From: Phormidium lacuna HE10JO
GTDB taxonomy: Bacteria; Cyanobacteriota; Cyanobacteriia; Cyanobacteriales; JAAUUE01
DNA: 32,000 nucleotides
Assembly (NCBI GenBank): GCA_943370025.1
Contig: CALRPI020000018.1
Location: forward strand, 561 to 32,560
Direction: 5' to 3'
In this document: one piece after another, positions 2,240 through 23,200 of the stretch
Layout: every line of letters begins with the position of its first letter
How positions within the stretch are numbered: position 1 is the stretch's first letter
The notes under the pieces: generated by a model
What the model was told of the DNA's origin: nothing
What the model saw: only the letters and a program-made list of their open reading frames with translations
Databases searched by the model: none
Program-made: the position numbers and the translations under genes

Positions 2240-2789
2240 TCAAGTTATCTTCAAAGTTATAGCAACCATCCTCATTGCGATTGTCATGCTTTATCCCCTG
2301 TGGGGAGCCACAAAAAATGAAGCTGGAAATAATGGGGTTTTATCATCGATTGGCACAATGGGTTGGATTACTACTTCAGAAATTGTTGCCACTTTTATTG
2401 TTGGTGTTGCCCTATATTGTCGATCGCTGCAAAAATGTCTGTCATTAGTCCAGCCGAGTTGTCAAGCCATGAAACCAAAAATGGTATGGCTGATGTTTGT
2501 ACCTTTTTACAACATCGTTGAGGACTTTTTTATCATCCAGAATGTTACGCGATCGCTTGAACAAGAAGCGCAAATAAATGAGCGTTTAAAAGACATGAAT
2601 AACTTTGGTAGGGTATCAGGTTTTGCTTGGTGCATCGCTCAGGTTGCCTCACTTTTTCCCTCATCAATTGGCGAGGGTGCTAGTTTTATTGCTCTGACTT
2701 TTTGGGTTGCTCATTGGCGATTGATTGCAAAGGTGAATAACCTGTTAACTATCGATAGTCTCGACAAAAAACAAGTTGAGTTTAATTAG
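2220..2789 (+). CDS. Hypothetical integral membrane protein (possibly DUF4328-like)
   Basis: Several hydrophobic helices are present. VWLMFVPFYNIVEDFF resembles the W-x-P-x-x-N motif of DUF4328, recalled from memory only. The ORF overlaps the GST gene by 20 nt. Confidence 0.5.
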   Translation: MLKIPNNQVIFKVIATILIAIVMLYPLWGATKNEAGNNGVLSSIGTMGWITTSEIVATFIVGVALYCRSLQKCLSLVQPSCQAMKPKMVWLMFVPFYNIVEDFFIIQNVTRSLEQEAQINERLKDMNNFGRVSGFAWCIAQVASLFPSSIGEGASFIALTFWVAHWRLIAKVNNLLTIDSLDKKQVEFN

Positions 2790-2840
2790 CTTTCATTGAC
2801 AAATTCATTGATTCAATTAGCAAAAGAAACCCTAAGAGGC

Positions 2841-2900
2841 TTGTGCCCCCTCCGGGGGCGCAAAACCAGACCTTCTAGCCACTTTATAAATGACCTCTAA
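2841..2900 (+). repeat. Composite ~60-nt element, copy a: GC hairpin (TTGTGCCCCC-tcc-GGGGGCGCAA), 16-nt spacer, then 26-nt box CTAGCCACTTTATAAATGACCTCTAA
   Basis: The same box recurs at 10079-10104 (reverse strand) and 29080-29106. This copy ends 12 nt before the ATG at 2913. Confidence 0.55.
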
Positions 2901-2912
2901 GCGAAGAAAAAT

Positions 2913-3194
2913 ATGCAGTATGTTTTAATCATCCATGAAGTTGAGGCTTATCCAGCTTGGAAAGCCATTTTTGACCAAGCCGCAGATATCAGAAAAAACG
3001 CTGGAGAAATCAGCTATCAATTACTGCGATACGATAATGATCCAAACAACATCGTCCATTTCTCGGAGTGGTCTTCGATCGATAATGCCCGCAGTTTTTT
3101 TGAGTCCAGCGAGTTGGTAGAGATCAGGAAGAAAGCTGGTGTAAAATCACCAAATTTTATCTACCTACAGGAGATAGAACGCGGTGTGTTATAA
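2913..3194 (+). CDS. Small dimeric alpha/beta-barrel (ABM/antibiotic-biosynthesis-monooxygenase-like) protein
   Basis: It is 93 aa. The pattern IVHFSEWSSIDNARSFFES is typical of ABM-fold proteins. The assignment is from memory of the family. Confidence 0.55.
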   Translation: MQYVLIIHEVEAYPAWKAIFDQAADIRKNAGEISYQLLRYDNDPNNIVHFSEWSSIDNARSFFESSELVEIRKKAGVKSPNFIYLQEIERGVL

Positions 3195-3247
3195 CGGTTG
3201 TTATAATGTTGTTATAATTTTGCACAAACTTATTTACATCAACCGTT

Positions 3248-3838
3248 ATGTTGAACAGTAAAACCCCTGACCAGATATTATATCAGGCAAAAATATTCCC
3301 AGTACCGAAGATTAACCTCTTCATTGCAGCAGCAATGGGGGCACTCACAACCTTTACATTTTTAGGCATTGGTTGGTATGTAAAATCTATCAATTTACTC
3401 AATTGGGGTTTGGGTTTACTGATTCTTACCCTGCTGTTAACCACACTGGCGATCGCAATCTTTCGCAAATATCAAACTCAAATTTGCTTAGTCAAGCAGA
3501 CAGATGGCAAAACTTGTTTAATGATCGGTCATAGTTTACGAGTCAACGTTTGGACATTGCCTTTAGAGTATCATTTCTCTTACTTTATGGGCTTAGTAGG
3601 TAAGCGAAATTATCAGTATCCAGCATTATTGCTAACGGTAATGGATCAACACAGCAATTGTATATTAGCCATACAAGAAGACTTGGGGGTGCAGTACCGT
3701 CCACCAGTAGGCTGGCCACTCACCGAATTGGTGGTGCTAGAGCAATTACCAAGCATGACTCATCATTATCGCAATCTATTTTCGCGCCCCCGGTTAGATG
3801 ATTTGAAGTATGTGCTAGATCAGGCGCACAAATCTTGA
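3248..3838 (+). CDS. Hypothetical membrane protein
   Basis: It is a 196-aa ORF with two clear N-terminal TM helices (LFIAAAMGALTTFTFLGIGWYV and LGLLILTLLLTTLAIAIF). I recognise no family. Confidence 0.5.
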   Translation: MLNSKTPDQILYQAKIFPVPKINLFIAAAMGALTTFTFLGIGWYVKSINLLNWGLGLLILTLLLTTLAIAIFRKYQTQICLVKQTDGKTCLMIGHSLRVNVWTLPLEYHFSYFMGLVGKRNYQYPALLLTVMDQHSNCILAIQEDLGVQYRPPVGWPLTELVVLEQLPSMTHHYRNLFSRPRLDDLKYVLDQAHKS

Positions 3839-3965
3839 GGGAATTGACTTGACTCAAAAGAGGTTAAAGCAGGGAGCGATCGAGTCCAAAGAACAGTAAA
3901 ATTGGTCTTGGTGATGCCAAAGACTAACTAGATTTTTATCATAAACTTGACGCTTCTTGAAAGCC

Positions 3966-4496
3966 TTAAGGATAACCTTTAATCAACTTTCCCCTGCTAA
4001 CAAAGGAGATTCCTTGATTGCCTACTGCGGTGATCATGACTGCTTCCACGATCGGCTCAGAAATAGTTTCGATACTCAGCCACTCTACAATAAAATTAGC
4101 TCCCGATCCGCCTTCTCTATCTGTCCTATTGACAACAAAATCTACAGAGGCTAGGCGATCGAGTTGGATAGGCTGTTCTAAATAATTTCTCACCAAATTA
4201 CCTGCACTATTATAGTAACGAACAGCAGTGACAACCATCGGTTTAGTTAAATCTATATTCCGAATACTCAAAGTTGCAGCTAAATCGAAACTTCTTTCTG
4301 AGGTTTCATAATAAATATGGGAATAAATAGGTACATAGATTGTTTGCCCCATTTTCCCTTTGAAGTTTGGTTCTAAAACAATTTTCTTAAAAGTAATTTG
4401 CTTGGTATTCTCAGTATTTTTCTCTCTCTGCTGTTTTACATCACAGCCACTAATAAATATTATCAAAACTAAAAATATTAAAAATATTCTCTTCAT
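3966..4496 (-). CDS. Lipoprotein, DUF3124-like
   Basis: It has a signal peptide plus lipobox (LIIFISGC). The motif GQTIYVPIYSHIYY resembles DUF3124 proteins, from memory. Confidence 0.6.
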   Translation of the reverse strand: MKRIFLIFLVLIIFISGCDVKQQREKNTENTKQITFKKIVLEPNFKGKMGQTIYVPIYSHIYYETSERSFDLAATLSIRNIDLTKPMVVTAVRYYNSAGNLVRNYLEQPIQLDRLASVDFVVNRTDREGGSGANFIVEWLSIETISEPIVEAVMITAVGNQGISFVSRGKLIKGYP

Positions 4497-4647
4497 AAAA
4501 TCCCGGTGATATTCAATGGTGATCGCTTTCCTAGCAAATTACTCATCCCCTGGTAAATTCCTGTCCATAACCTGAAAGTATTCTATCCCAATTTCTTAGG
4601 GAGCCTATCCCATGTACTATTAAGAATTATTCTAAGAGAGGCTAACT

Positions 4648-5346
4648 ATGTATGTTGTAGTGGGTGGTGCAGGAATTTTAGGATTGCGTTTAGCCCAACA
4701 ATTATTAGAGATGGGGCATACTGTGGCTGTAGTTGATATTAGCTCCTCGGTCTGCCAATATGCTCGTGAGAAAGTAGGCGTGATGGCGTTTGAAGGTAGT
4801 GCTGTTAGTACGACAGTGTTGATTGAAGCAGGGATTCGCCGGGCTGGGTTTGTTGTTGCTACCCTCAGCAGTGATGCCTTGAATTTAGCCTTAGTTACTC
4901 TTGCCAAGCACTACCAAGTTCCCCATATTGTCACTCGGATTATTGATACGGATTTTACGGAACCCTACCGAATTGCTGGAGCAAACCATGTGATCAGTAC
5001 GATCGATCTAGCGGTGGCATCTATGGCAAATGCGATCGAATATCCAGAAATTGAATCGATGATGCACTTTGAACAGGGACAAATCGAAGTTTTAAAACTC
5101 TCTATTCCGGGCAATTGTTACGCCGCAGCGAAGACCGTTGCAGAAATTGCCCAAGACCCAAATTTTCCAGCAGGTTCATTAATTATTGGCTATCAACCCC
5201 ATCCCCATGAACCTCTGATGATTCCTAATGGTCAAACCGTCTTAGAAAAAGAATCAACTATTCTAGTGGTCACCAAACCGGAATTAGTCCGACAGATGCT
5301 CAAGTTTCTAGGAGTTTTAAAACCTGACAAACCTGATCAAGATTAA
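4648..5346 (+). CDS. TrkA/RCK-domain NAD-binding regulatory protein
   Basis: It has a Rossmann motif (VVGGAGILGLRLAQQLLEMGHTVAVVD) followed by a TrkA-C-like C-terminal half. Confidence 0.85.
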   Translation: MYVVVGGAGILGLRLAQQLLEMGHTVAVVDISSSVCQYAREKVGVMAFEGSAVSTTVLIEAGIRRAGFVVATLSSDALNLALVTLAKHYQVPHIVTRIIDTDFTEPYRIAGANHVISTIDLAVASMANAIEYPEIESMMHFEQGQIEVLKLSIPGNCYAAAKTVAEIAQDPNFPAGSLIIGYQPHPHEPLMIPNGQTVLEKESTILVVTKPELVRQMLKFLGVLKPDKPDQD

Positions 5347-13380: not shown

Positions 13381-13591
13381 GTTGAGAACGGCTTCCCCTC
13401 CGGGCTGCCGTGTACACACAAGTATTGATCATCTCGTTTAATGGGGAGGATCCCCCTAAATCCCCCTTAAAAAGGGGGACTTAAATTAATTCTCCCCCCT
13501 TTTTAAGGGGGGCTGGGGGGATCAACTCCTGAAACGTAATCGGAATGGACTTGTGTGTACACCGTAGCCCTCCGGGGGAGACGTTCTCAAC
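13381..13591. repeat. Nested MITE-like foldback element
   Basis: The outer 43-nt arms are 13381-13423 (GTTGAGAACGGCTTCCCCTCCGGGCTGCCGTGTACACACAAGT) and 13549-13591, with about 8 mismatches. They enclose an inner inverted repeat at 13449-13523 (GATCCCCCTAAATCCCCCTTAAAAAGGGGGA ... TCCCCCCTTTTTAAGGGGGGCTGGGGGGATC). The flanks share CCTCTARAA...ATCCTAAA direct repeats. Confidence 0.5.
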
Positions 13592-13675: not shown

Positions 13676-15184
13676 ATGTATTGTGACTACCTCGAACGCA
13701 TCCTCACGGCTCGTGTCTATGATGTTGCCCAAGAAACTCCCCTAGAATATGCCCCTAATCTTTCCACCCGCCTTGAGAATAAATTGCTCCTGAAGCGGGA
13801 AGATATGCAATCGGTATTTTCCTTCAAGTTGCGGGGGGCTTATAACAAGATGGCTCAGTTGCCCCCGGATCTATTGGCACAAGGAGTTATTGCTGCTTCG
13901 GCGGGGAACCATGCCCAAGGCGTGGCTTTGGCAGCCAGTCGGCTGGGGACACGATCGATCATTGTCATGCCCGTCACTACCCCAGAGGTGAAGGTGAATG
14001 CGGTCAAAGCAAGGGGAGCAGAAGTAGTCCTCTACGGGAATACCTACGATGATGCCTATACCCATGCCCGCCAGTTGGAGCAGGAGAAAAACTTGACATT
14101 TATTCATCCCTTTGATGATCCCGATGTGATTGCCGGGCAGGGGACGATCGGGATGGAGATTCTCCGCCAGTGTCAGCAGCCGATCCATGCGGTTTTTGTG
14201 GCGATCGGCGGTGGGGGCTTAATCTCTGGGATCGCTGCCTATATCAAGAGATTACGCCCGGAAGTGAAAATTATTGGTGTGGAACCAGTGGATGCGGCGG
14301 CGATGTATCAATCTTTGGCGGCAGGCAAGCGGGTTCGTTTACCCCAAGTGGGTTTATTTGCCGATGGAGTGGCAGTACGAGAAGTAGGAGTAGAGACTTT
14401 CCGTTTGTGTCAGCAGTACGTGGATGAAATTATTTTGGTGGATACCGATGATACCTGTGCGGCTATTAAAGATGTGTTTGAAGATACTCGATCGATCCTT
14501 GAACCGGCTGGGGCATTGGCGATCGCTGGGGCAAAAGCCTACGTGGAACGGGAACAGATCACCGGAAAAACCCTAGTGGCGATCGCCTGTGGCGCAAATA
14601 TGAATTTCGATCGCCTCAGATTCGTCGCTGAACGAGCTGAACTGGGGGAACGGCGGGAGGCGATATTTGCTGTGAATATTCCTGAATCGCCGGGCAGTCT
14701 GCGGAGATTTTGTGATTGCTTGGGCGATCGCAATCTAACCGAATTTAGCTATCGGATTGCCGATTCCCAAGCGGCACATATTTTTGTCGGCTTGCAAATC
14801 AAAAACCGAGCTGATGCCGCCCAGATGGTGCAAGGCTTCGAGTCCTGTGGATTTAAAACTATTGATCTCACGGATGATGAACTCACTAAACTCCATCTCC
14901 GTCACATGGTGGGGGGGCGATCGCCTTTGGCACATAATGAATTGCTCTATCGGTTTGAGTTTCCAGAGCGACCGGGGGCTTTGCGGTTGTTTGTCAATTC
15001 CATGAGTCCCAACTGGAATATTAGTTTATTTCACTATCGGAACCACGGCGCAGACTACGGCAGGATAGTGGTGGGAACCCAAGTCCCGCCCCAAGAAATG
15101 GCAGATTGGCAAGCCTTTCTAGATACCCTCGGCTATCAATACTGGGATGAGAGTCAGAATCTGGCTTATAAGCTATTTCTTTAA
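13676..15184 (+). CDS. ilvA: Biosynthetic threonine ammonia-lyase (threonine dehydratase) IlvA
   Basis: It has the PLP-lysine motif (SFKLRGAYN) and a glycine loop (GGGGLISG). Two C-terminal ACT-like regulatory repeats are present, and the 502-aa length is typical of IlvA. Confidence 0.92.
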   Translation: MYCDYLERILTARVYDVAQETPLEYAPNLSTRLENKLLLKREDMQSVFSFKLRGAYNKMAQLPPDLLAQGVIAASAGNHAQGVALAASRLGTRSIIVMPVTTPEVKVNAVKARGAEVVLYGNTYDDAYTHARQLEQEKNLTFIHPFDDPDVIAGQGTIGMEILRQCQQPIHAVFVAIGGGGLISGIAAYIKRLRPEVKIIGVEPVDAAAMYQSLAAGKRVRLPQVGLFADGVAVREVGVETFRLCQQYVDEIILVDTDDTCAAIKDVFEDTRSILEPAGALAIAGAKAYVEREQITGKTLVAIACGANMNFDRLRFVAERAELGERREAIFAVNIPESPGSLRRFCDCLGDRNLTEFSYRIADSQAAHIFVGLQIKNRADAAQMVQGFESCGFKTIDLTDDELTKLHLRHMVGGRSPLAHNELLYRFEFPERPGALRLFVNSMSPNWNISLFHYRNHGADYGRIVVGTQVPPQEMADWQAFLDTLGYQYWDESQNLAYKLFL

Positions 15185-15347
15185 GGAGGAAAGTACCGGG
15201 AGATACAGGGAGGTAAGGGAATAAATAAGTATCTGGTTTGATCATTATTATTGATGAAGATGGCTAACGGCTTGCGCTTCACCGGAAGAAAACAAAGCTT
15301 GCTACGCAACCAATAGCAGATACCGCCGTTCTGAGTTCAAGCTCTTG

Positions 15348-15626
15348 TTATGCTTGATGCTGAGTTTTTTTGCTCTCTATATATTGGCGCAAAACGTTGT
15401 TAATTAGAGTTTTATGCTGTTCTCCTTGAGCCTGAAACCACTGCTTCACGTCAGGATCAAGCTGAACTAGGTTATGGGCTTTATCTGCTGGAATGCGTAA
15501 AGTCGCTTGTTCAAAAAAATCATCTGTCAGCGGTGGAATATCTGAATAATCAATATTCTCTTCTGACCTTGATTCTAAAGCTGCCCAATTAGTACGAGAG
15601 GTACTGTTCAAATCTTTTTTGCTCAT
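15348..15626 (-). CDS. brnA: BrnA-family antitoxin
   Basis: It is a 92-aa protein immediately downstream of, and overlapping, brnT. The C-terminal RHH-like region (VQLDPDVKQWFQAQGEQHKTLINNVLRQYI) is typical of BrnA. Confidence 0.8.
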   Translation of the reverse strand: MSKKDLNSTSRTNWAALESRSEENIDYSDIPPLTDDFFEQATLRIPADKAHNLVQLDPDVKQWFQAQGEQHKTLINNVLRQYIESKKTQHQA

Positions 15627-15867
15627 GACGGTTGGCTCTTCGTGCTGAAATGATTCGGATTATATCTTTTCGACGTTCTGTCCAGACTATTACCGCTATC
15701 CCAAAACCGAGAAAACCGATCCCGATCCAGCGATCTTCGCCATAATCAAAACGATCATCTAGCTCAATCAGCATTTCACCATCAAACATTGAGAGAACAT
15801 CAGCAAAATCAATCTCATGTTTACGGATGTTTTCAAGATTTTTTGCTTCGTCCCATTCAAATTGCAT
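15589..15867 (-). CDS. brnT: BrnT-family toxin (type II TA ribonuclease)
   Basis: The N-terminus MQFEWDEAKNLENIRKHEIDF and the RIISARRA motif are hallmarks of BrnT. Confidence 0.85.
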   Translation of the reverse strand: MQFEWDEAKNLENIRKHEIDFADVLSMFDGEMLIELDDRFDYGEDRWIGIGFLGFGIAVIVWTERRKDIIRIISARRANRHEQKRFEQYLSY

Positions 15868-15918
15868 GAAGGATTAGGGTATGACAGATTAAACTAACCT
15901 CTTTTATTATCACGCATG

Positions 15919-16038
15919 ACGGTTTTGGGAACTCAAGTCCTGCCCCAAAAAATGACAGAATGGCAAGCATTTCTCGATACCCTAGGCTATCAATACTGGG
16001 ATGAGAGTCAGAATCCGGCTTATAAGCTGTTTCTTTAA
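15919..16038 (+). pseudogene. Orphan duplicate of the last ~40 codons of ilvA (including the stop)
   Basis: It translates as TVLGTQVLPQKMTEWQAFLDTLGYQYWDESQNPAYKLFL*, compared with IlvA ...IVVGTQVPPQEMADWQAFLDTLGYQYWDESQNLAYKLFL*. A hand alignment to 15065-15184 shows about 14 mismatches in 120 nt. Confidence 0.85.
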
Positions 16039-16058
16039 TGAGGAGTTCGGGTTAAGGG

Positions 16059-16097
16059 CTTTTTGAGGGGTGGCGCAATGTGTCGCTCCTCAAAAAG
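16059..16097 (+). terminator. Stem-loop CTTTTTGAGG-(19 nt)-CCTCAAAAAG just after the orphan ilvA 3' fragment
   Basis: It has a 10-bp perfect stem and starts 21 nt after the remnant stop codon. It is plausibly the ancestral ilvA terminator. There is no strong U-tract. Confidence 0.4.
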
Positions 16098-16207
16098 TCT
16101 AATTTTATATGCGCATCACGCGCACAAAACCAGGAACCTTAGCTTATTCCGAGGGTGCAGTTAGCAACCGCCCTGTCGCTCGCCACCTTAGCTAGAGAAA
16201 TCCATTC

Positions 16208-16627
16208 TTATTCACCCATATAAGGCTCTCCTGATAAAAGGATCACGAGAAGCATACTTATCCAAACTACAAGCATTAAATAGATTGATAGAGCAAAACA
16301 ATTTAGTACCAACCTTAATACCTTTTGCCATACGTGCTGTTTTCGTCTAACTGCTATGATAACCTTCATCACTCCTGTAATAACAAGCGGTAGAGTCGAG
16401 ATCGTAGCTAAAAGCCAACCACAGAAAAAAGAGATAACTGGTGCTACGTTGAACACTATACTCATCACCATGATTAGACAAGCCAAGACGAGCAAGCTTG
16501 AACAAGTGAGTTCTACGAGGAGAATTCCCTTGCTAGATTGTGTTTGTCTGTGATATTTAAGAGCGCTTTTAGCAATAAGAACTCCATGTAGTCCCGTCAA
16601 CCCAGCAACTGCGTATTCAGGTGACAT
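16208..16627 (-). CDS. Hypothetical small polytopic membrane protein
   Basis: It is 139 aa with about 4 TM helices. I recognise no family. It lies in the HIP1-free patch. Confidence 0.45.
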   Translation of the reverse strand: MSPEYAVAGLTGLHGVLIAKSALKYHRQTQSSKGILLVELTCSSLLVLACLIMVMSIVFNVAPVISFFCGWLLATISTLPLVITGVMKVIIAVRRKQHVWQKVLRLVLNCFALSIYLMLVVWISMLLVILLSGEPYMGE

Positions 16628-16849
16628 TATTGATGCTTAACTCCTGCGTAAGAGCTGTTTGAAAAGTTTGATGGTCGATAAAAAGCCTTCCTCGGATGGC
16701 CTAGTTCTCCCCTGAATGATCGCTAACTCTCACTTTCGCAACTCATACCAGTACCTCTGGAAGCTTGGCAAGCTAAAGACTCTGGTCAGCAGCTGCCAAT
16801 ATCCTTGGAATTCAACCAGAAACCCTCGTCAGTCCGCTGCAAGCACGGG

Positions 16850-17158
16850 TTAGACCGTCGCTACCCGACTATTTAACCACCGCTGAAACGATTTTTGACT
16901 TTCTCCCGATGGTTGCCCAAGAATCAGGTTTTTGAGGCTAATATCTTCATCAAGCTGATTCCAATGGATTCCGCTATCGCCAGCAATGAAGCGATAGTCG
17001 TTACGTTCTTCTACTGAGCCATGCAAGAGGCTAGGATACCATGCTAATGGCACAGATATGGTACGCCCATCAGATAAATCCATAGAGATGGTATCATCAG
17101 TGACGGTCACTTGCTGAATTTTGGCTATTTCAAGCAGTTCAATCGTTAAAGAATTCAT
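16850..17158 (-). CDS. DUF2442 domain protein
   Basis: The pattern ISVPLAWYPSLLHGSVEERNDYRFIAGDSGIHWNQLDEDISLKNLILG matches the DUF2442 pattern (W-P-L...R...I...G..I.W..LD.DIS), from memory. Confidence 0.75.
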   Translation of the reverse strand: MNSLTIELLEIAKIQQVTVTDDTISMDLSDGRTISVPLAWYPSLLHGSVEERNDYRFIAGDSGIHWNQLDEDISLKNLILGQPSGESQKSFQRWLNSRVATV

Positions 17159-17300
17159 TCCAGCCTACTAGTAATTGCTCTTGATGTTCTTCAACAAGTT
17201 TTTGAATGCGGTTAATATCTCTGCGACTAAACCCTCTATTACTTTGAAGACGGATTGGGTTCAAGTCACCGATTGGCTCCTTCTGTCGGAGGACAATAAG
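17139..17300 (-). pseudogene. 3' fragment of a DUF4160-like gene (usual partner of DUF2442) abutting the IS element
   Basis: The open frame reads LIVLRQKEPIGDLNPIRLQSNRGFSRRDINRIQKLVEEHQEQLLVGWNEFFND*. It has no start codon. It overlaps the DUF2442 start by about 20 nt, as in intact pairs. The C-terminal pattern GF..R.I.RIQ.LV.E....LL..WNE.F is family-typical, from memory. Confidence 0.55.
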
Positions 17301-17313
17301 ATTGGGTCGTGCC

Positions 17314-17814
17314 TCAGATAATGGTTGGATAGGTGATTACATCATGCCATGTCCAGGGCTGTAATGCTAATCCTGCTCGCTGGGCTGCTGTTGTCTTAAA
17401 CCGACTATGCCGCCAAATCCAGTTAAAGTAATTCACTACTAATCGAGCCGTCACCTTCGTTTGCTCCCATACTTTGCCAAACTTGTTCTGCCTACGATGC
17501 CAACGCCCAGTTTGCTGCCTGACAATGCCGTTAGTTCGCTCTAATCTTTGCGTCTTGTCTTTGCCGATGTAGTGGAGAATTTCAGGCGGTAAGACCCGTT
17601 CGTAACCTCCCCAATCATCGCTATTCCATTGCTTGCACTCTGTCTTTCCTTCCGTACTGACCACCAACTCCTCAATCAACTCATCGGTATGTTTGCCAAC
17701 TCTTGCAGCTAAAATCAATCCACTGGAATTCGCCAAACTCACCCCAATCCAGCAATCCCCCACCTCTAATTCTCCTGGGAGACATTGCTTTTGTTTTTTT
17801 CCACAAATGACCAC
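17314..17814 (-). CDS. IS1-family transposase, catalytic (InsB-like) frame, expressed by -1 frameshift from the InsA frame
   Basis: DDE-type motifs are present: DELWSFV (in the upstream frame), NSDDWGGY and RLERTNGIVRQ. The frames overlap at GAAAAAAAC, seen as a T7 run at 17794-17800 on the plus strand. Confidence 0.8.
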   Translation of the reverse strand: MVICGKKQKQCLPGELEVGDCWIGVSLANSSGLILAARVGKHTDELIEELVVSTEGKTECKQWNSDDWGGYERVLPPEILHYIGKDKTQRLERTNGIVRQQTGRWHRRQNKFGKVWEQTKVTARLVVNYFNWIWRHSRFKTTAAQRAGLALQPWTWHDVITYPTII

Positions 17815-18143
17815 AATTCATCCGCACTCACTTCTTCTGTTTGTACCGCTTGCATCTGAGCATTATGAACGAGTTGAGCTTGCTGACTGGCGGCACGAAT
17901 AAGGCTCACCACCGTATTATAGGCAAGCCCACTGGTGCGGCTAATACCTCGCAGACTGCTGCCCTCACTATGAGCCTGTAAAACTTGCCGGATTTGTTCT
18001 TCACTTACATGGCGGTGATAATACATTGTGTCAAACCGTTCATTGAACGTTTGCTGGCAATGGGGGCTGAAGTAGCGTTGGCTTCCGTTCGGGGCTTTGC
18101 CGTGTTTATGAGTGCTAAGATAACCACAGAGCTTACATTCCAT
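17766..18143 (-). CDS. IS1-family InsA-like DNA-binding protein (zinc-finger/HTH)
   Basis: It has an N-terminal C-x2-C and an HTH region (SLRGISRTSGLAYNTVVSLI). The second zinc-finger half is degenerate (SPHC). It ends just after the slippery site. Confidence 0.8.
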   Translation of the reverse strand: MECKLCGYLSTHKHGKAPNGSQRYFSPHCQQTFNERFDTMYYHRHVSEEQIRQVLQAHSEGSSLRGISRTSGLAYNTVVSLIRAASQQAQLVHNAQMQAVQTEEVSADELWSFVEKNKSNVSQEN

Positions 18144-18474
18144 AGATTCAACCTGTGATTCGTTGATACTCTATCTTATCAGACCCACCTCTTTTTGATG
18201 CATGACCAACTGCATTAAGCGATCGGGCGTGACAGGCGGATGGCTGGTTCCTATATCTTGCTGCATCGACTTTGCTCCTTTAGTTTTACCACTTCAATTT
18301 TACGGCATTATTCCTATACTATAACTGCTCCACCCTTGGGTGCTTTCGGACTTAGCGATCGATCCAAAGTGCAAGTGCAAAGGCTTTGTATGCAGCCAGC
18401 TAACGACTCAAATCAGCAGTGGCAGATAATCTTTGAAACCCTCATAACGGCTTTCATCCACTGCATTTGAATTG

Positions 18475-19803
18475 TCATGTGTTTAGTAAAGTCAATTGTT
18501 TTGGCTGAAATGGCTCGTCAGATACTAAAGAATTCACGCTTAGATCAACTTTTGCATCAATACTGTTTAATAAAGCAACCATACTGCGACCAACCGCAAA
18601 AGCCAAATTCACAGGTACAGCATTACCAATTTGCTTATATTGACTACTCACAGAACCTGAAAACAGCCATTCATCTGGAAATGTCTGCACCCTAGCATAC
18701 TCCCTAATTTTTAAGGGTCTTGTCTCTTCTGGATGACATCTTTCTGTTTGTTTCTGAGCAGGAGAACAGGTGAGAGTTAAACTTGGCTCATCCCATGAAA
18801 GCCGACGTGCCATCCCAGTTTTCCCTCCACCTAAAAAATAACTACCTTGCATGTATTCTCTTTGAAGATCATCAGGTAAATCTCTCCAGTAACCACCCGG
18901 AGGAACAAAAGATAATATTTCTCTTTTCCTTTTTGGATAAGTCTGTCCCTCTGATGAGGGCACATCAGTATCATACAATTCACCAGATTTTAAAGCATCT
19001 TTTAAAGTTAATATTTTGTAATACTTTGATGGCCATTTAAATGTTGAAAATCGAACTAAATCGTTTCTAATCCCAACCAGAAATAAACGTTCTCTTTTTT
19101 GAGGCACGTGGTAAAATAATGCTTTTAAAACCTTTGGCTCAATCAGCGTATATCCTAAATCCGAAATGATAGACCTGATCACGGATAAAGTTTTTCCATC
19201 ATCATGATTTAGTAAACCACGTACATTTTCCCCAAGAAAAACTTTTGGCCTAACTGTTTTTATGGCTCTAGAAAATTCAAAAAACAATGTGCCTCTAGTA
19301 TCTTCAAACCCTAATTTCTCACCTGCATAAGAAAATGCCTGACAAGGAAATCCACCAGAAATAAGGTCGATATCATTAAATTCCGTAAAGTCCACATTTT
19401 TTATATCACCTTGAATGACATTCCATCTAGGTCGATTAGTCCGCAAAGTCTTACAGGCATCTTTATCAATTTCACTCAGGGCAACAGCACTAAATCCAGC
19501 TTTCTCTAGCCCCAGAGCAAGCCCACCTGCACCTGCAAAAAGTTCGATAGATGAAAATCCTCTTACAGCTTTTATATTTAGCTCTTGATTCCAATCGGTC
19601 TTAATCATATCTCTTACTTCTTCAAACTGAATTAGTTGAGATATTGTATATTCTTTTTTATTTGTAACTGGATTTTGTACAGAAATCAGCTTCCCACTTT
19701 TTTCCCACTTCAATAATGTAGCTTTGGAGACGGAGACTATATCTGCGAGTAATTCTGCTGAAATTGTCATTTTATCAAACATTGAAATCTTCAAATCCTT
19801 CAT
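18475..19803 (-). CDS. DNA (cytosine-5)-methyltransferase with an N-terminal MerR/excisionase-type HTH extension
   Basis: C5-MTase motifs are present: I FAGAGG, IV GGFPCQAFS, VI GENVRGL, VIII QKRERLFLVG and X GNAVPVNLA. About 80 aa of N-terminal HTH precede them (ISAELLADIVSVSKATLLKWEKSGKL). Alternative starts lie at 19782 and 19770. Confidence 0.92.
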   Translation of the reverse strand: MKDLKISMFDKMTISAELLADIVSVSKATLLKWEKSGKLISVQNPVTNKKEYTISQLIQFEEVRDMIKTDWNQELNIKAVRGFSSIELFAGAGGLALGLEKAGFSAVALSEIDKDACKTLRTNRPRWNVIQGDIKNVDFTEFNDIDLISGGFPCQAFSYAGEKLGFEDTRGTLFFEFSRAIKTVRPKVFLGENVRGLLNHDDGKTLSVIRSIISDLGYTLIEPKVLKALFYHVPQKRERLFLVGIRNDLVRFSTFKWPSKYYKILTLKDALKSGELYDTDVPSSEGQTYPKRKREILSFVPPGGYWRDLPDDLQREYMQGSYFLGGGKTGMARRLSWDEPSLTLTCSPAQKQTERCHPEETRPLKIREYARVQTFPDEWLFSGSVSSQYKQIGNAVPVNLAFAVGRSMVALLNSIDAKVDLSVNSLVSDEPFQPKQLTLLNT

Positions 19804-20644
19804 AGTTCTTGAAAGAAAGTAAGTAAATACTTTTCAATAAATTAGGATCAATATCCTTTAGTTCTCTAAATACAGAGTTTGACTCTGCTTCAATATCACT
19901 GCTATCTACAATATCTTGGATTATCAAAGGCAATTTTTCGCATAGTTTCTTGAATGCAAACTTGCTGCCGGTCACTAATTCATAAAACCTATCAATAGAA
20001 ACGCGACGTATTCTTTCATTTGATACACTTTGGCCGTCTAAGCTCACCCTCCACACGATATTTTGGCTTCTTTTCGCAATCACTTCTACCAGCATACATG
20101 TTGCCTGTGGATTTGACAGCAAGGTATTTTGCATTCTCATGTAAGTCTTTTGGGCAGATGATGAATTCATGGTGTTATGTTTGTTTTTTATCTCAACATA
20201 ATACATAAGCGCGGTATTTACTACGTCATATCCTTGCGCTGGTACTATCCATTCATCACTCAGGTATCGAAAGATATTTTGATGAAAATAGCCGATGTGA
20301 TTTGTGTTAGATTTATCTATTTGCCTAAGAACTTCACTCTCTATCACAAATTCGATGCTCTTACGATAAACTTTTGCATCGAATGTCAATTTAATTGGGT
20401 CTAATAAATTCTTATTGAACTCAGCTAAGTCAATGCGAAATCTGTATTTCCTTACAGTCTCTTTGACATGATGATAGATATTTTCGTTACTTATAAAGCC
20501 AAGATTATAATCTCTCATCTTTCCTTTTGGATACAATTGATCTTGCACCTGAATTTTGACAAATAAATATGGATTAGACGGAGATTTTTTGTCTAATCTG
20601 ACCACAAGGTATATAGTCTGAATGTCAAGTTTCTGACTAATCAC
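19775..20644 (-). CDS. Candidate type II restriction endonuclease partner of the C5 methyltransferase
   Basis: It lies directly upstream of the MTase gene and overlaps or abuts it. A PD-(D/E)xK-like arrangement, GYD...VEIKNK, is present. The stretch EIKNKHNTMN reminds me of Eco47II/Sau96I-type enzymes, but this is unverified. Confidence 0.55.
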   Translation of the reverse strand: MISQKLDIQTIYLVVRLDKKSPSNPYLFVKIQVQDQLYPKGKMRDYNLGFISNENIYHHVKETVRKYRFRIDLAEFNKNLLDPIKLTFDAKVYRKSIEFVIESEVLRQIDKSNTNHIGYFHQNIFRYLSDEWIVPAQGYDVVNTALMYYVEIKNKHNTMNSSSAQKTYMRMQNTLLSNPQATCMLVEVIAKRSQNIVWRVSLDGQSVSNERIRRVSIDRFYELVTGSKFAFKKLCEKLPLIIQDIVDSSDIEAESNSVFRELKDIDPNLLKSIYLLSFKNYEGFEDFNV

Positions 20645-20859
20645 CCGATGGAAGATATTATACGAAAAAATTCTGCTTAATATCCCATTTTGGGGTAGCT
20701 AGAAGGGATTTCTCTGCTTAATCATCTATTTGAAGGGTTAGCCCGACGGCAGCAGGTATTATTTAACGCGAGTCTCCAACAGTACGTTCTGCTACAAAGT
20801 GGGGAAACTAAATTCGGTAGATTCAACTACACCCTATTTGTAATTTGGCTAATGAATTA

Positions 20860-21786
20860 ATGCGAATTGAGCAGTTACAGGCTTTTTTGGCGGTGGCAGA
20901 AACTGGGAGTTTTCAAAAGGCAGCACAACAGTGCCAAGTAACCCAATCGACTATTAGCAGACAAGTTCAAGCATTGGAAACAGAACTGGGGCTGCCCTTG
21001 TTTCATCGAAGTAATTATTCTAAACCCACGATCGCTGGCGATCGCCTCCTCCGCTATGCCCGGAAAATTTGCCAAGACTGGCGTAATGCTACCCAAGAAT
21101 TGTTGGAACTCCGGGAGGGTAAGCAGCCAGAATTGTGTGTGGCAGCGATTCATTCTGTGTGTGCCTACCACCTGCCCAAAGTGTTACAAATGTTTTGTGC
21201 CGATTATCCCCAAGTGCAGTTACGGGTGACAGCTTTGGGAAGCGATCGAGCTTTGAAGGTTCTTAAGGATGGGCTGGTGGATCTGGCGATCGTCATGCAT
21301 AATCGCTACCTGACCAACAATGCAGAAGTGGTGGTGGAAAAGCTGTTTGATGAGCCGATCGAAGTTTTGATGGCGGCGGATCACCCCTTAGCAAAATCTC
21401 AGCTAGTGTCTTGGGCAGAAATTGCCCCCTATCCCCAAGTAGTTTTTAAGCACGGCTACGGAATGCAGCGGATTATTCAAGAGCAGTTTTCTTTACTGGG
21501 AGTTAGTCTCCATGCCGCCTTGGAACTAAACACCCCCGATGCCTTTCGAGGAGTAGTCCGCCAGAGCAAAATGATTGCCCTGTTGCCCCGATCGGCAATG
21601 TTAGAGGCTCTGGACGACCCAACCCTGGCAGTGCGATCGATCATCACGGAACCGATAAAAAATCTTCAAGCCATCCCCTTTAGCCGTCAAGTTGTCTTAG
21701 TCACCACGAGCGATCGCCTAGAAATTCCCCCCATCCAACATTTCCATCAACTAGTCAAGCAACACCTTGGGACAGTTATCAGTTAA
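20860..21786 (+). CDS. LysR family transcriptional regulator
   Basis: The N-terminal LysR HTH reads MRIEQLQAFLAVAETGSFQKAAQQCQVTQSTISRQVQALETELGLPLFHR. The track ORF starts at a TTG at 20845, but the ATG at 20860 is preferred. Confidence 0.9.
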   Translation: MRIEQLQAFLAVAETGSFQKAAQQCQVTQSTISRQVQALETELGLPLFHRSNYSKPTIAGDRLLRYARKICQDWRNATQELLELREGKQPELCVAAIHSVCAYHLPKVLQMFCADYPQVQLRVTALGSDRALKVLKDGLVDLAIVMHNRYLTNNAEVVVEKLFDEPIEVLMAADHPLAKSQLVSWAEIAPYPQVVFKHGYGMQRIIQEQFSLLGVSLHAALELNTPDAFRGVVRQSKMIALLPRSAMLEALDDPTLAVRSIITEPIKNLQAIPFSRQVVLVTTSDRLEIPPIQHFHQLVKQHLGTVIS

Positions 21787-21892
21787 CAGTTATCAGTTAC
21801 TTGTGCTGAGCTTGTCGAAGCATCAGTTCTCAGTTATCAGTTGGGAACTCTCCATAAGCATTTATCATTGTTTACTGTTTACTGTTCACTGA
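21773..21892. repeat. Heptamer arrays between the convergent LysR and GNAT genes
   Basis: The arrays are CAGTTAT/CAGTTAA/CAGTTAT/CAGTTAC (21773-21800), CAGTTCT/CAGTTAT/CAGTTGG (21824-21844) and an oppositely oriented TGTTTAC/TGTTTAC/TGTTCAC (21869-21892). The first array contains the LysR stop codon. The same heptamer family occurs in the urtB-urtC spacer. Confidence 0.6.
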
Positions 21893-21893
21893 T

Positions 21894-22325
21894 TTAAAGT
21901 TTGAGGGCGAAATGATAACAGGTAATTTCTAGACGCTGGCGAAAGTAGAAACGATGGGCTGCAAAGCGCTGAACGCCCGAATCTAGATGAAACTCTTGGC
22001 AGTTTTGGGTTTTGGCATAGTTCATTAACCATTGCAAAATTTCTTCGCCGTAACCTTGGGAGCGATCGCTCTCCTGAGTAATCAAATCATCCACATACAG
22101 GAACTTCCCAAAAGATAGAGACTCAGAGATCCGAAATCCCGCCACAGCCTTAACCTGCTCTACTCCCGTATTTTCGATAGCTAAAAAAGCTAGTTGATAG
22201 CCTCCCTGCTGTTGCCTGCGGACTTTTGCTACAAATTCCTCAGGGTGTAAATGGGGACGGAGTTGCTGCATCACTGGGAAACAGGCACTAATTTCTTGAT
22301 CGCTCTGGGCAAGTTGTATTGGCAT
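21894..22325 (-). CDS. GNAT family N-acetyltransferase
   Basis: It has the acetyl-CoA-binding motif (QESDRSQGYGEEILQWL). I place the start at the ATG at 22325 (MPIQLAQSD...). The longer track ORF would overlap the upstream gene by about 100 nt. Confidence 0.85.
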   Translation of the reverse strand: MPIQLAQSDQEISACFPVMQQLRPHLHPEEFVAKVRRQQQGGYQLAFLAIENTGVEQVKAVAGFRISESLSFGKFLYVDDLITQESDRSQGYGEEILQWLMNYAKTQNCQEFHLDSGVQRFAAHRFYFRQRLEITCYHFALKL

Positions 22326-22327
22326 GA

Positions 22328-23200
22328 TTAGGATTGAGCTATGTATTCTAGACATTTTTGCATTTGCTGCACCATGGTAGCTCGATCGCCATGAAATCTC
22401 CTGCCGTGACCGGGAAGTACCCACTCAAAATCATAGGCGGCTAACTTTGCCATAGATTTTCCCAGCTCTGCCCAGGAATACCAGCAGGCATCCCGAAAGG
22501 CATAGAGTTGTTGTAGTCGTTCTGAATATGCTAAATGATCGCCTGAAAATAGAAATTTATTTCGGTAAAGCAGTACCGTATGTCCCTTGGTGTGACCGGG
22601 GACGGGAATGATTAATAAATCTGGGGCTAACTCGTAGGGGTCTGTACCTTGGAGTTTAATTTCGACTGCTTGGGTTCCAGAGGTAATATCATCTTGGTGC
22701 AGGAGGCGATCGCATTGGAAATGCTCATGAAATTTGGCATGATCCGCCACATCATCCCGGTGAGTCAGATAAAGATAACGCACCCCACCCAAAGCTTCTA
22801 GACGCTTGACCAAGGGCGGTGCAAACCGGGGCGAATCTACTAAAATATTCCCCTCTGGTCGCTGAATAAAATAGCTGGCTGCTCCAAAGGAATTTTCGGC
22901 ATGGTAGCCACAGTGATAGACATTTTCGGCAACTAATAGGGGAAATTGAGCCTGAACATCTTTGATATCTTGAGGTTTTTCTACCGTGCCGATCGAAGCT
23001 GTGGGGCAGGAGAGGAGAGCTTGCATTGCCCGATGCCGGCTAGCAGTATCCGTGGGTTGTTGATATACCGCCGATTGTCCCTGCTGGCGATCGAACACTT
23101 CCGCCGCCATCCACCGACAAGTATCACAATCAATGCAGGTACTATCAACAAAAAAATCACCACTAATATTCTCAGCTCGGCGCTGTTGGAGTTTTGCCAT
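22328..23200 (-). CDS. MBL-fold metallo-hydrolase with an N-terminal ferredoxin-like Cys cluster
   Basis: The N-terminus reads FFVDSTCIDCDTCRWMA. MBL-type motifs are LTHRDDVADH and PVPGHTKGH...SGDH. The gene ends 2 nt before the GNAT start. Confidence 0.8.
   Translation of the reverse strand: MAKLQQRRAENISGDFFVDSTCIDCDTCRWMAAEVFDRQQGQSAVYQQPTDTASRHRAMQALLSCPTASIGTVEKPQDIKDVQAQFPLLVAENVYHCGYHAENSFGAASYFIQRPEGNILVDSPRFAPPLVKRLEALGGVRYLYLTHRDDVADHAKFHEHFQCDRLLHQDDITSGTQAVEIKLQGTDPYELAPDLLIIPVPGHTKGHTVLLYRNKFLFSGDHLAYSERLQQLYAFRDACWYSWAELGKSMAKLAAYDFEWVLPGHGRRFHGDRATMVQQMQKCLEYIAQS

Follow-up and report, generated by a model that had tools for sequence, protein, structure and literature searches.

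A stranded copy of the ilvA 3' end borders accessory DNA beside an integron-type brnTA cassette in Phormidium lacuna HE10JO

The ilvA locus and its duplicated 3' end

In this study we analysed a 32-kb stretch of the genome of the filamentous cyanobacterium Phormidium lacuna HE10JO (32,000 nucleotides (nt) of contig CALRPI020000018.1, positions 561 to 32,560; hereafter the window), in which the 3' end of ilvA, encoding biosynthetic threonine dehydratase, is present in two copies of the same orientation. The first copy (copy 1) is the end of the intact gene, and the second (copy 2) is a relic lying downstream of a small toxin-antitoxin cassette, brnTA. The locus represents a gene-fragment scar at the border of an island, beside an independently mobile cassette; a structure of this kind is already known, and the present example is new. 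The features on which the analysis is based are as follows (positions of the window; aa, amino acids; ORF, open reading frame; a vertical bar within a motif marks a junction).

13676-15184, plus strand: ilvA, biosynthetic threonine dehydratase, 502 aa, intact (Pfam PALP and two Thr_dehydrat_C stretches)
15060-15190, plus strand: repeat copy 1, the functional gene end, with the final ~40 codons of ilvA, its stop codon and 6 nt beyond it (secure core 15072-15190)
15185-15267, plus strand: clade-typical ilvA-downstream spacer, ending in GGCTAA, the target half of the G|TT junction of the cassette
15268-15919, minus strand: brnTA gene cassette, 652 nt, with its own exact ends at G|TT junctions
15262-15353, minus strand: attC-like element, 92 nt, with a predicted long imperfect hairpin
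15348-15626, minus strand: brnA (PF14384 BrnA_antitoxin, 2.7e-8, 34.5 bits, cut-off 26.1)
15589-15867, minus strand: brnT (PF04365 BrnT_toxin, 1.5e-25, 89.7 bits, cut-off 34.5)
15868-15919, minus strand: short leader of the cassette with a -10 box
15920-15925, no strand assigned: CGGTTT, a 6-nt stretch separating cassette and relic, origin uncertain
15914-16044, plus strand: repeat copy 2, non-functional relic of an ilvA 3' end (secure core 15926-16044), in which a 40-codon ORF (15916-16038) is still open
16057-16099, no strand assigned: terminator-like hairpin of 20 pairs with A/T-rich flanks and a T-rich tail, between the relic and ORF139
16100-20708, minus strand: remaining part of the strain-specific island, the genes of which all lie on the minus strand
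20845-21786, plus strand: gene of a lysR-family regulator, the ancestral right neighbour of ilvA (88% aa identity to the L090 gene and 93% to the L093 gene)

A repeat search of the window revealed that the two copies form an ungapped direct repeat of 131 nt (15060-15190 and 15914-16044, offset 854 nt) with 88% identity (115 of 131 bases identical, 16 mismatches). Self-BLASTN retained a core of 119 nt (15072-15190 versus 15926-16044; 11 mismatches, 90.8% identity, E=1.3e-43), and five mismatches fall within the first 12 nt of the repeat (15060-15071), so that its left edge is uncertain. No third copy was detected in the window, where the best ungapped match of the 131-mer elsewhere reached 53/131. 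The initial annotation, which had been made from the letters of this DNA, was thus correct in stating that the last ~40 codons of ilvA recur downstream in the same orientation with the stop codon included, and that many of the mismatches are non-synonymous (14 codons differ between the copies, eight of them non-synonymously and six synonymously). Its view that this is not a recent tandem repeat also holds, the duplication being genuine and old. The stem-loop noted behind copy 2 is real as well: the hairpin with its T-rich tail lies 18 nt past the copy-2 stop codon and resembles a bidirectional intrinsic terminator. The weak similarity suggested for ~25 nt past the stop codon was not recovered, since the copies cease to resemble each other after 6 nt and any extension beyond these is at chance level (p=0.1-0.5 versus shuffles).

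Two independent short-read assemblies (L001 and L091) break in or beside the ilvA tail; for annotation it is of note that short-read assemblies break at this repeat. Such breaks would favour the view that the repeat reflects chance similarity or an error of assembly, the probability of which is nonetheless negligible in view of the BLASTN E value given above, of the microhomology at the cassette-relic junction (at most 6 nt, too short for a k-mer misjoin) and of an independent assembly in which the private variants of copy 2 are joined to its flank. The latter, Logan assembly L091 of the same strain, is 100% identical to 15986-22627, including the private variants at 16016, 16029 and 16039; copy 2 and its flank have thus been independently reproduced. 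The L091 contig ends inside a 31-nt run that is identical in both copies, and its break is a k-mer effect with no misjoin. Contig L001 (95% IlvA identity) ends at its position 2038, three codons short of the ilvA stop codon, perhaps a sign that this genome, too, has such a repeat.

Copy 1 and the spacer are ancestral, and the DNA behind them is accessory

The region was compared with 80 ilvA loci from species-representative genomes and with closer relatives found through protein look-ups and one metagenome scan. All 79 of the loci that include the ilvA end carry a single copy of this end and no brnTA downstream, and no neighbouring genes are shared between the window and these loci of other genera. 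Exact-protein look-ups for the IlvA and BrnT of the window gave no match, and the metagenome scan with the repeat pattern yielded three loci only.

The IlvA protein consists of a catalytic domain (PALP, 2.3e-85) followed by two C-terminal regulatory domains (Thr_dehydrat_C in two stretches), and shows 93-96% aa identity to cyanobacterial IlvA proteins. Comparison with six relatives revealed an even level of identity along the whole of ilvA and no mosaic breakpoint. Copy 1 differs from the sister lineage L086 at 9 of 110 nt, i.e. it is as diverged as the rest of ilvA, which indicates that it did not travel with the cassette. The earlier proposal that copy 1 is an imported gene end, which had displaced the resident one, is therefore not supported.

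In two related metagenomic genomes, L090 (IlvA 90% aa identity) and L093 (95%), lysR directly follows ilvA. Nucleotide homology between these loci and the window is lost at ~15223-15238 and returns at 20778-20781 (weakly from ~20709), which demonstrates that the interval 15268-~20708 (~5.4 kb, between ilvA and lysR) is accessory in HE10JO. The GC content of the island is 34-46%, versus 47-53% in the flanks (ilvA, lysR). The highly iterated palindrome HIP1 (the 8-mer GCGATCGC) occurs 23 times in the window (0.24 expected) and four of these sites lie inside ilvA, yet none was found between 14925 and 21037 (~4.7 expected in the island; P ~0.009). HIP1 serves here as a simple marker separating core from acquired DNA. 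The gene content of the interval, made up of toxin-antitoxin, insertion-sequence and restriction-modification genes, likewise points to a foreign origin.

The flanks of the two copies were also compared. A part of the spacer behind copy 1 (15199-15238) aligns with the flank of the cassette-free L090 (score 41; the L087 flank versus L090 scores 52), and the whole spacer is ~88% identical to that of L086/87. The flank 3' of copy 2 gave no alignment to the L090 or L086/87 flanks, and the hairpin/ORF139 flank is absent from L090 and L093. The clade-typical flank thus belongs after copy 1 and not after copy 2, and the DNA between the copies is not composed of brnT and brnA only, as had been assumed, but also includes the ilvA-downstream spacer common to relatives (15185-15267). 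When the cassette and 15926-~20708 are removed, what remains is collinear with the region between ilvA and lysR in L090 (ATGAAG...TTTCTCTG). Copy 2 is the ilvA-proximal tip of ~4.8 kb of accessory DNA (15926-~20708), situated in the ilvA-lysR spacer, 83 nt past the ilvA stop codon.

The ilvA-downstream interval is a hot spot of accessory DNA, and its accessory or defence-like content differs in each of five lineages. In L094 (IlvA 96% aa identity) ilvA is followed by other accessory genes (2361-4787), including a reverse transcriptase gene (RVT_1) and two ORFs of unknown function, while L089 has yet another content downstream of ilvA.

The purine-rich stretch at 15199-15238 (GGAGATACAGGGAGGTAAGGG...) is kept even in L090, whose ilvA is 81% identical at the nucleotide level. 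It gave no Rfam match and may represent a functional 3' element. The low divergence of the spacer from L086 was at one point taken as a sign of recent transfer; this was withdrawn, since the spacer is conserved even versus the distant L090 and is thus constrained.

A sister lineage has the cassette but no second ilvA end

In L086 and L087 (assembly GCA_043777695.1) and in L088, ilvA is likewise followed by this spacer and by the cassette, which is inserted at the junction used in the window (it reads GCCG|TTAACC there and GCCG|TTAGCC in the window). These loci share with the window pair-breaking changes in the attC arm. No second copy of the ilvA end is present in any of the three, which argues against the idea that the duplication comes with brnTA. 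Among the loci compared, brnTA sits downstream of ilvA in these three, but in none of the 79 species-representative ones.

Homology of L086/87 to the window ends at 15916, beyond which a gene of a clan AA aspartic protease, and no ilvA fragment, is found. The protease gene (L086:378-728, L087:322-672) encodes 116 aa instead of the usual 121 (~5 codons short), and is preceded by a 91-aa ORF without a Pfam match; the sister-lineage junction appears to have clipped this gene as well as the first few bases of the cassette.

The synonymous divergence between the window and L086 amounts to 0.59 for ilvA, 0.12 for brnA and 0.06 for brnT, and the nucleotide divergence of the spacer plus attC is 9.9%. 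The cassette is 98% identical to that of L086. Since the spacer is constrained, the cassette is the one part that may with confidence be considered younger than the ilvA split.

brnTA has the properties of an integron-type cassette

The brnT and brnA genes constitute a two-gene operon with ORFs overlapping by 38 nt, and both products contain the domains of type II toxin-antitoxin systems, with Pfam scores above the cut-offs. In gene order (toxin first), overlap and product size (~92 aa each) the pair, known here from its sequence, resembles the type II system BrnT/BrnA of Brucella abortus. It differs from the latter in belonging to an unusually uniform subfamily (82-100% aa identity, more than 100 clusters), members of which occur at many loci of cyanobacteria. 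The relatives of BrnT number more than 1,400, and their best 120 clusters are 82-100% identical.

Approximately 30 brnTA loci were retrieved for comparison of their contexts. The cassette was matched with 89-94% nucleotide identity in at least 12 unrelated gene contexts, and the homology always stopped at 15264/65 and 15917. The brnA-side end of every copy reads ...CCG|TT, followed by variable bases (GTTATGC, GTTAGCC, GTTAGAC and others; TTRRRY-like), and in four independent contexts the brnT side starts exactly at G|TTATGC. A GCATAAC motif overlaps the brnA stop codon, and its exact complement, GTTATGC, lies 91-99 nt away in the circular junction. The inverse core (RYYYAAC) and core (GTTRRRY) of an attC site are each matched at six of seven positions, are complementary and are spaced within the 57-141 nt range. 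Single folds and RNAalifold predicted the same bulged stem for this stretch, with 95% of cells pairing, versus 29-42% when the partner was slid; covariation in the stem is weak, with one compensatory pair only, and 58-71 of 500 shuffles do as well. No flanking direct repeats were detected at six other cassette loci, which indicates that insertion of the cassette does not itself duplicate target DNA.

The occurrence of integrons in cyanobacteria and the insertion of cassettes at secondary sites, by which lone cassettes can arise, have been described (Cury et al. 2016, PMC4889954). The brnTA unit is similar to lone integron cassettes (lone attC sites, or attC clusters without integron integrases, CALIN) in that an imperfect inverted repeat of ~92 nt, with outer cores GCATAAC/GTTATGC, comes after its ORFs and in that it is bounded by G|TT in many contexts; with chromosomal cassettes it shares a toxin-antitoxin cargo with its own promoter. 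In contrast to integron arrays, there is no intI in the window and no neighbouring attC, and this particular attC copy has pair-breaking changes. On these grounds we describe brnTA as an integron-type, rather than proven integron, gene cassette that is separately mobile. The more useful by-product of this study is the evidence that this highly uniform brnTA family moves as an integron-type cassette, often to sites with no integron nearby, and it looks as if the family circulates widely among cyanobacteria in this form. The brnTA loci often lie beside other toxin-antitoxin pairs (PemK, HigB, DUF3368/UPF0175).

The junctions of the cassette in the window (minus strand) have GAGTTCCCAAAACCG followed by TCATGCGTGATAAT on the brnT side, and GCGCAAGCCG followed by TTAGCCATCTTCATC on the brnA side. 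They read AAAACCG|TCATGC and AAGCCG|TTAGCC, which is the expectation for a simple insertion into AAAACCG|TTAGCC. As judged by comparison with the 5' ends of the cassettes of L083, L084, L095 and L107, removal of the cassette would join CGGTTT to 15262-15267 and rebuild CCG|TTAGCC (minus strand). The brnT-side junction resembles the canonical start CCG|TTATGC joined onto the -10 region, with ~70 nt of the leader absent; this loss may be due to a deletion that took place between two ATGC motifs. If the match at this junction (8/9) is real, both junctions fit a conservative insertion into AAAACCG|TTAGCC. Without the cassette, the relic would lie ~89 nt past the ilvA stop codon.

The ~730 bp between the copies, which the initial annotation had treated as one incoming unit, therefore consist of 83 nt of spacer and a cassette whose ends recur at 12 or more loci without repeats. 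As brnTA is a separate element, the repeats bracket it by position and not by mechanism; more generally, a repeat that brackets a gene pair need not stem from the insertion of that pair.

These results bear directly on two explanations in which the repeat is a part of the mobile unit. Genomic islands, integrative and conjugative elements (ICEs) and cis-mobilisable elements that reside in gene 3' ends (tRNA genes; fda in the case of ICESt1/St3) carry attL/attR repeats of the gene end. In the first explanation the two copies are the attL and attR sites of an element targeting the ilvA 3' end and since reduced to brnTA (a cis-mobilisable remnant). The direct repeat of a gene 3' end in the same orientation, the accessory DNA downstream and the intact gene are all features of such islands and ICEs, in which toxin-antitoxin modules are common cargo. 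The initial annotation had proposed an island-style integration as one of two possibilities. No integrase or remnant of one was found by Pfam searches of ORFs of at least 90 aa in the 32-kb window and of small ORFs near the repeat, and scans of the region revealed no tRNA and no Rfam families. The empty sites of L090 and L093 read ilvA-lysR, not ilvA-hairpin, and place copy 2 inside the accessory DNA. Moreover, 83 nt of ancestral, clade-typical flank lie within the supposed element next to the proximal copy, so that the repeats are not at its borders, and the cassette has different and precise ends of its own. L086-88 have the same cassette with no attR, and the other 79 ilvA loci a single gene end. 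Integration of the att type is thus contradicted on four counts, and we regard this explanation as barely credible.

The second possibility is that the 854-bp unit composed of the ilvA tail, spacer and brnTA is a self-propagating module, which we consider a highly improbable proposition. If it were correct, the 119-131-bp repeats would allow the unit to loop out as a circle, a single crossover would re-insert it at the ilvA end of related strains, and addiction to BrnA would prevent its loss; part of a housekeeping gene would then serve a toxin-antitoxin cassette as a homology arm that travels with it.

Copy 2 resembles the tail of another allele

Within its secure 113 nt, copy 2 shows 10 differences from copy 1, 9 from L094, 9 from L086 and 10 from L001; its distance from copy 1 is thus similar to that of orthologues from other lineages. 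An attempt to assign it to a donor lineage was abandoned for lack of resolution, as L094, L086, copy 1 and L001 are all 9-10 mismatches away. Eight of the ten differences between the copies are states present in functional alleles of relatives: for example, copy 2 has Pro at a residue at which 51 of 59 homologues have Pro, and Glu at one at which 29 of 59 have Glu. It also carries changes of Pro to Leu and of Glu to Lys at near-invariant residues (conserved in 58/59 and 55/59 homologues, respectively), which indicates that it is non-functional. Taken together, the substitutions give copy 2 the appearance of another allele's tail in which decay has started, more than that of a duplicate derived from copy 1 by decay. 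The 40-codon ORF (15916-16038) should accordingly be annotated as a pseudogene fragment.

An alternative origin would be an old local tandem duplication of ~200 nt (ilvA tail and spacer), followed by neutral decay of the distal copy and by later events that placed brnTA between the copies and put the island in place of the distal spacer copy. Both copies end in CTT-TAA and have the next 6 nt of flank in common; they would be ~89 nt apart without the cassette, and the sequences nearest to copy 2 all belong to the same clade. The changes polarised with outgroups (3-6 in copy 2, plus five at the edge, and 2-4 in copy 1) also fit neutral decay. However, at least three events would be required, and the second unit lacks the spacer past 6 nt. 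The CTT-TAA end is also found in L094 and is therefore not private, most of the copy-2 states are natural variants (including the Pro of the family majority), and the third-position distance between the copies equals that of lineages whose whole genes differ by 11-14%. We regard a local duplication as unlikely, though still a serious candidate.

Two further views of copy 2 and its surroundings were considered. Interpretation of its flank as L094-like, or as a degenerate attC end, was dropped because the scores were at chance level. Within 15881-16038, a sigma-70-like match (ATGACA, 18 nt, TATTAT; 10/12) ends 6 nt ahead of the ATG of the 40-codon ORF. Promoter-like matches are not enriched in this region (one found versus 2.4 expected). 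With this match before it and the terminator behind it, the relic ORF could in principle yield a leaderless peptide that corresponds to the regulatory domain of IlvA, which we likewise consider highly improbable.

Origin of the relic

From this structure we infer a donor, a direction of transfer, a type of recombination and an order of events. We tentatively favour, at somewhat less than an even chance, the view that one-sided homologous recombination brought in an island that lay downstream of ilvA in a relative, together with the donor's gene tail and terminator, the cassette being a later addition. The donor would have been a related cyanobacterium carrying the block directly downstream of its own ilvA. 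The incoming DNA would have paired by homology on the lysR side, and its other end, ~120 nt inside the donor ilvA, would have been joined illegitimately into the recipient spacer (homology-facilitated illegitimate recombination). The gene tail and terminator of the donor would thus be passengers, and the resident ilvA (copy 1) would never have been interrupted. Decay of the relic would have begun afterwards, and brnTA would have inserted, probably after arrival of the relic, by conservative G|TT exchange at CCG|TTAGCC exactly between the spacer and the relic.

Of the earlier suggestion of recombination with a relative's DNA, one part is therefore retained (a scar in a variable region, probably made by DNA of a relative), but not the notion that the ~730 bp arrived as one repeat-bounded unit.

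Homology-facilitated illegitimate recombination is known from natural transformation (de Vries & Wackernagel 2002; Prudhomme 2002; summarised in PMC6382021). The structure of the locus points to this process, as the acquired DNA is absent from relatives and homologous DNA is present on one border. In such events the incoming DNA is held by a single homologous anchor and a single join of little or no homology, and part of a gene is left at its edge; the locus would have arisen in this way. The junction (15914-15925) is ambiguous as regards a microhomology join of 3-10 bp. In contrast to typical cases, the recipient DNA would have been kept here, with none deleted, so that the donor tail would survive as a direct repeat.

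The same final structure could also result from a single event of the opposite polarity, that of the initial annotation, in which the resident genome had the order ilvA-hairpin-ORF139...lysR, the incoming DNA was ilvA with its spacer, possibly together with brnTA, and copy 2 and the hairpin are the displaced end and terminator of the resident gene. Homologous recombination would then have taken place in or upstream of ilvA, and the illegitimate join of the right end would lie ~120 nt ahead of the stop codon of the resident gene. The position of the hairpin suits an ilvA terminator, and copy 2 bears marks of decay. In addition, the cassette and, less clearly, the spacer are far closer to L086 than ilvA is, which suggests that the left block has partly a history of its own. 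On the other hand, the arrangement of ilvA and spacer is common to the sister lineage L086/87 and the distant, cassette-free L090, there is no breakpoint in ilvA, and copy 1, whose divergence from L086 equals that of the remaining gene, did not travel with the 98%-identical cassette. Furthermore, lysR and ilvA have the same relative distances to L093 and L090. What would be gained by a replacement ilvA is not obvious, whereas the restriction-modification and toxin-antitoxin genes of the island maintain themselves, and the 5' terminus of the cassette appears intact at the junction, which would be a coincidence if an illegitimate join had occurred there. This is the less likely direction of transfer, and we rate it as rather improbable.

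Several points weigh against the capture of a donor island. No donor genome with the order ilvA-hairpin-ORF139 was found, and the only other contig with ORF139 comes from the same strain. The direction of transfer rests on indirect arguments, as the mirror-image event (incoming ilvA and spacer) gives the same structure. The allele argument is weak, with 113 informative bases, and the counts are also compatible with an old local duplication and neutral decay of copy 2; such decay is expected to give a ratio of non-synonymous to synonymous changes of ~1.5:1, and 5:5 was observed, while the Pro of copy 2 could be a chance reversion (~4%, an estimate). As for the cassette, neither an integron integrase (window scan) nor a second convincing attC-like site (crude R''/R' and folding scan of the island) was found in the 32-kb window, and the latter scan did not show the island to be a cassette array. 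The match of the 5' junction to CCG|TTATGC (8/9) was seen post hoc (p ~0.02, an estimate) and needs the ~70-nt leader deletion. Finally, the window and L086/87 lose cassette homology within at most 7 nt of each other, next to different neighbours, which is not fully explained; our guess is that L086/87 later underwent a deletion by which the protease gene was clipped as well.

The locus offers a base-level view of how a variable "defence and addiction" island is put together in the interval that separates two conserved genes of a filamentous cyanobacterium, in which the stranded gene tail would mark one acquisition and the precisely bounded toxin-antitoxin cassette another.

Other features of the region

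The remaining part of the island contains the following genes (based on Pfam).

16208-16627, minus strand: ORF139, a membrane ORF of 139 aa
16850-17158, minus strand: DUF2442 gene
17139-17264, minus strand: truncated DUF4160 gene, 41 aa
17314-18143, minus strand: transposase of the IS1 family, in two overlapping frames (17766-18143 and 17314-17814)
18475-19803, minus strand: C5 methylase of an Eco47II-type system
19775-20644, minus strand: Eco47II-type endonuclease

The position of the transposase suggests that insertion of the insertion sequence (IS) truncated the DUF2442/DUF4160 pair. The Eco47II-type restriction-modification pair is complete, its genes overlap by 29 nt, and it has the lowest GC content in the window (34-38%). 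Upstream of ilvA, at 13400-13580, lies an element resembling a miniature inverted-repeat transposable element (MITE), in which the long terminal inverted repeats CCGGGCTGCCGTGTACACACAAGT ... ACTTGTGTGTACACCGTAGCCCTCCGGG surround G-/C-rich palindromic runs.

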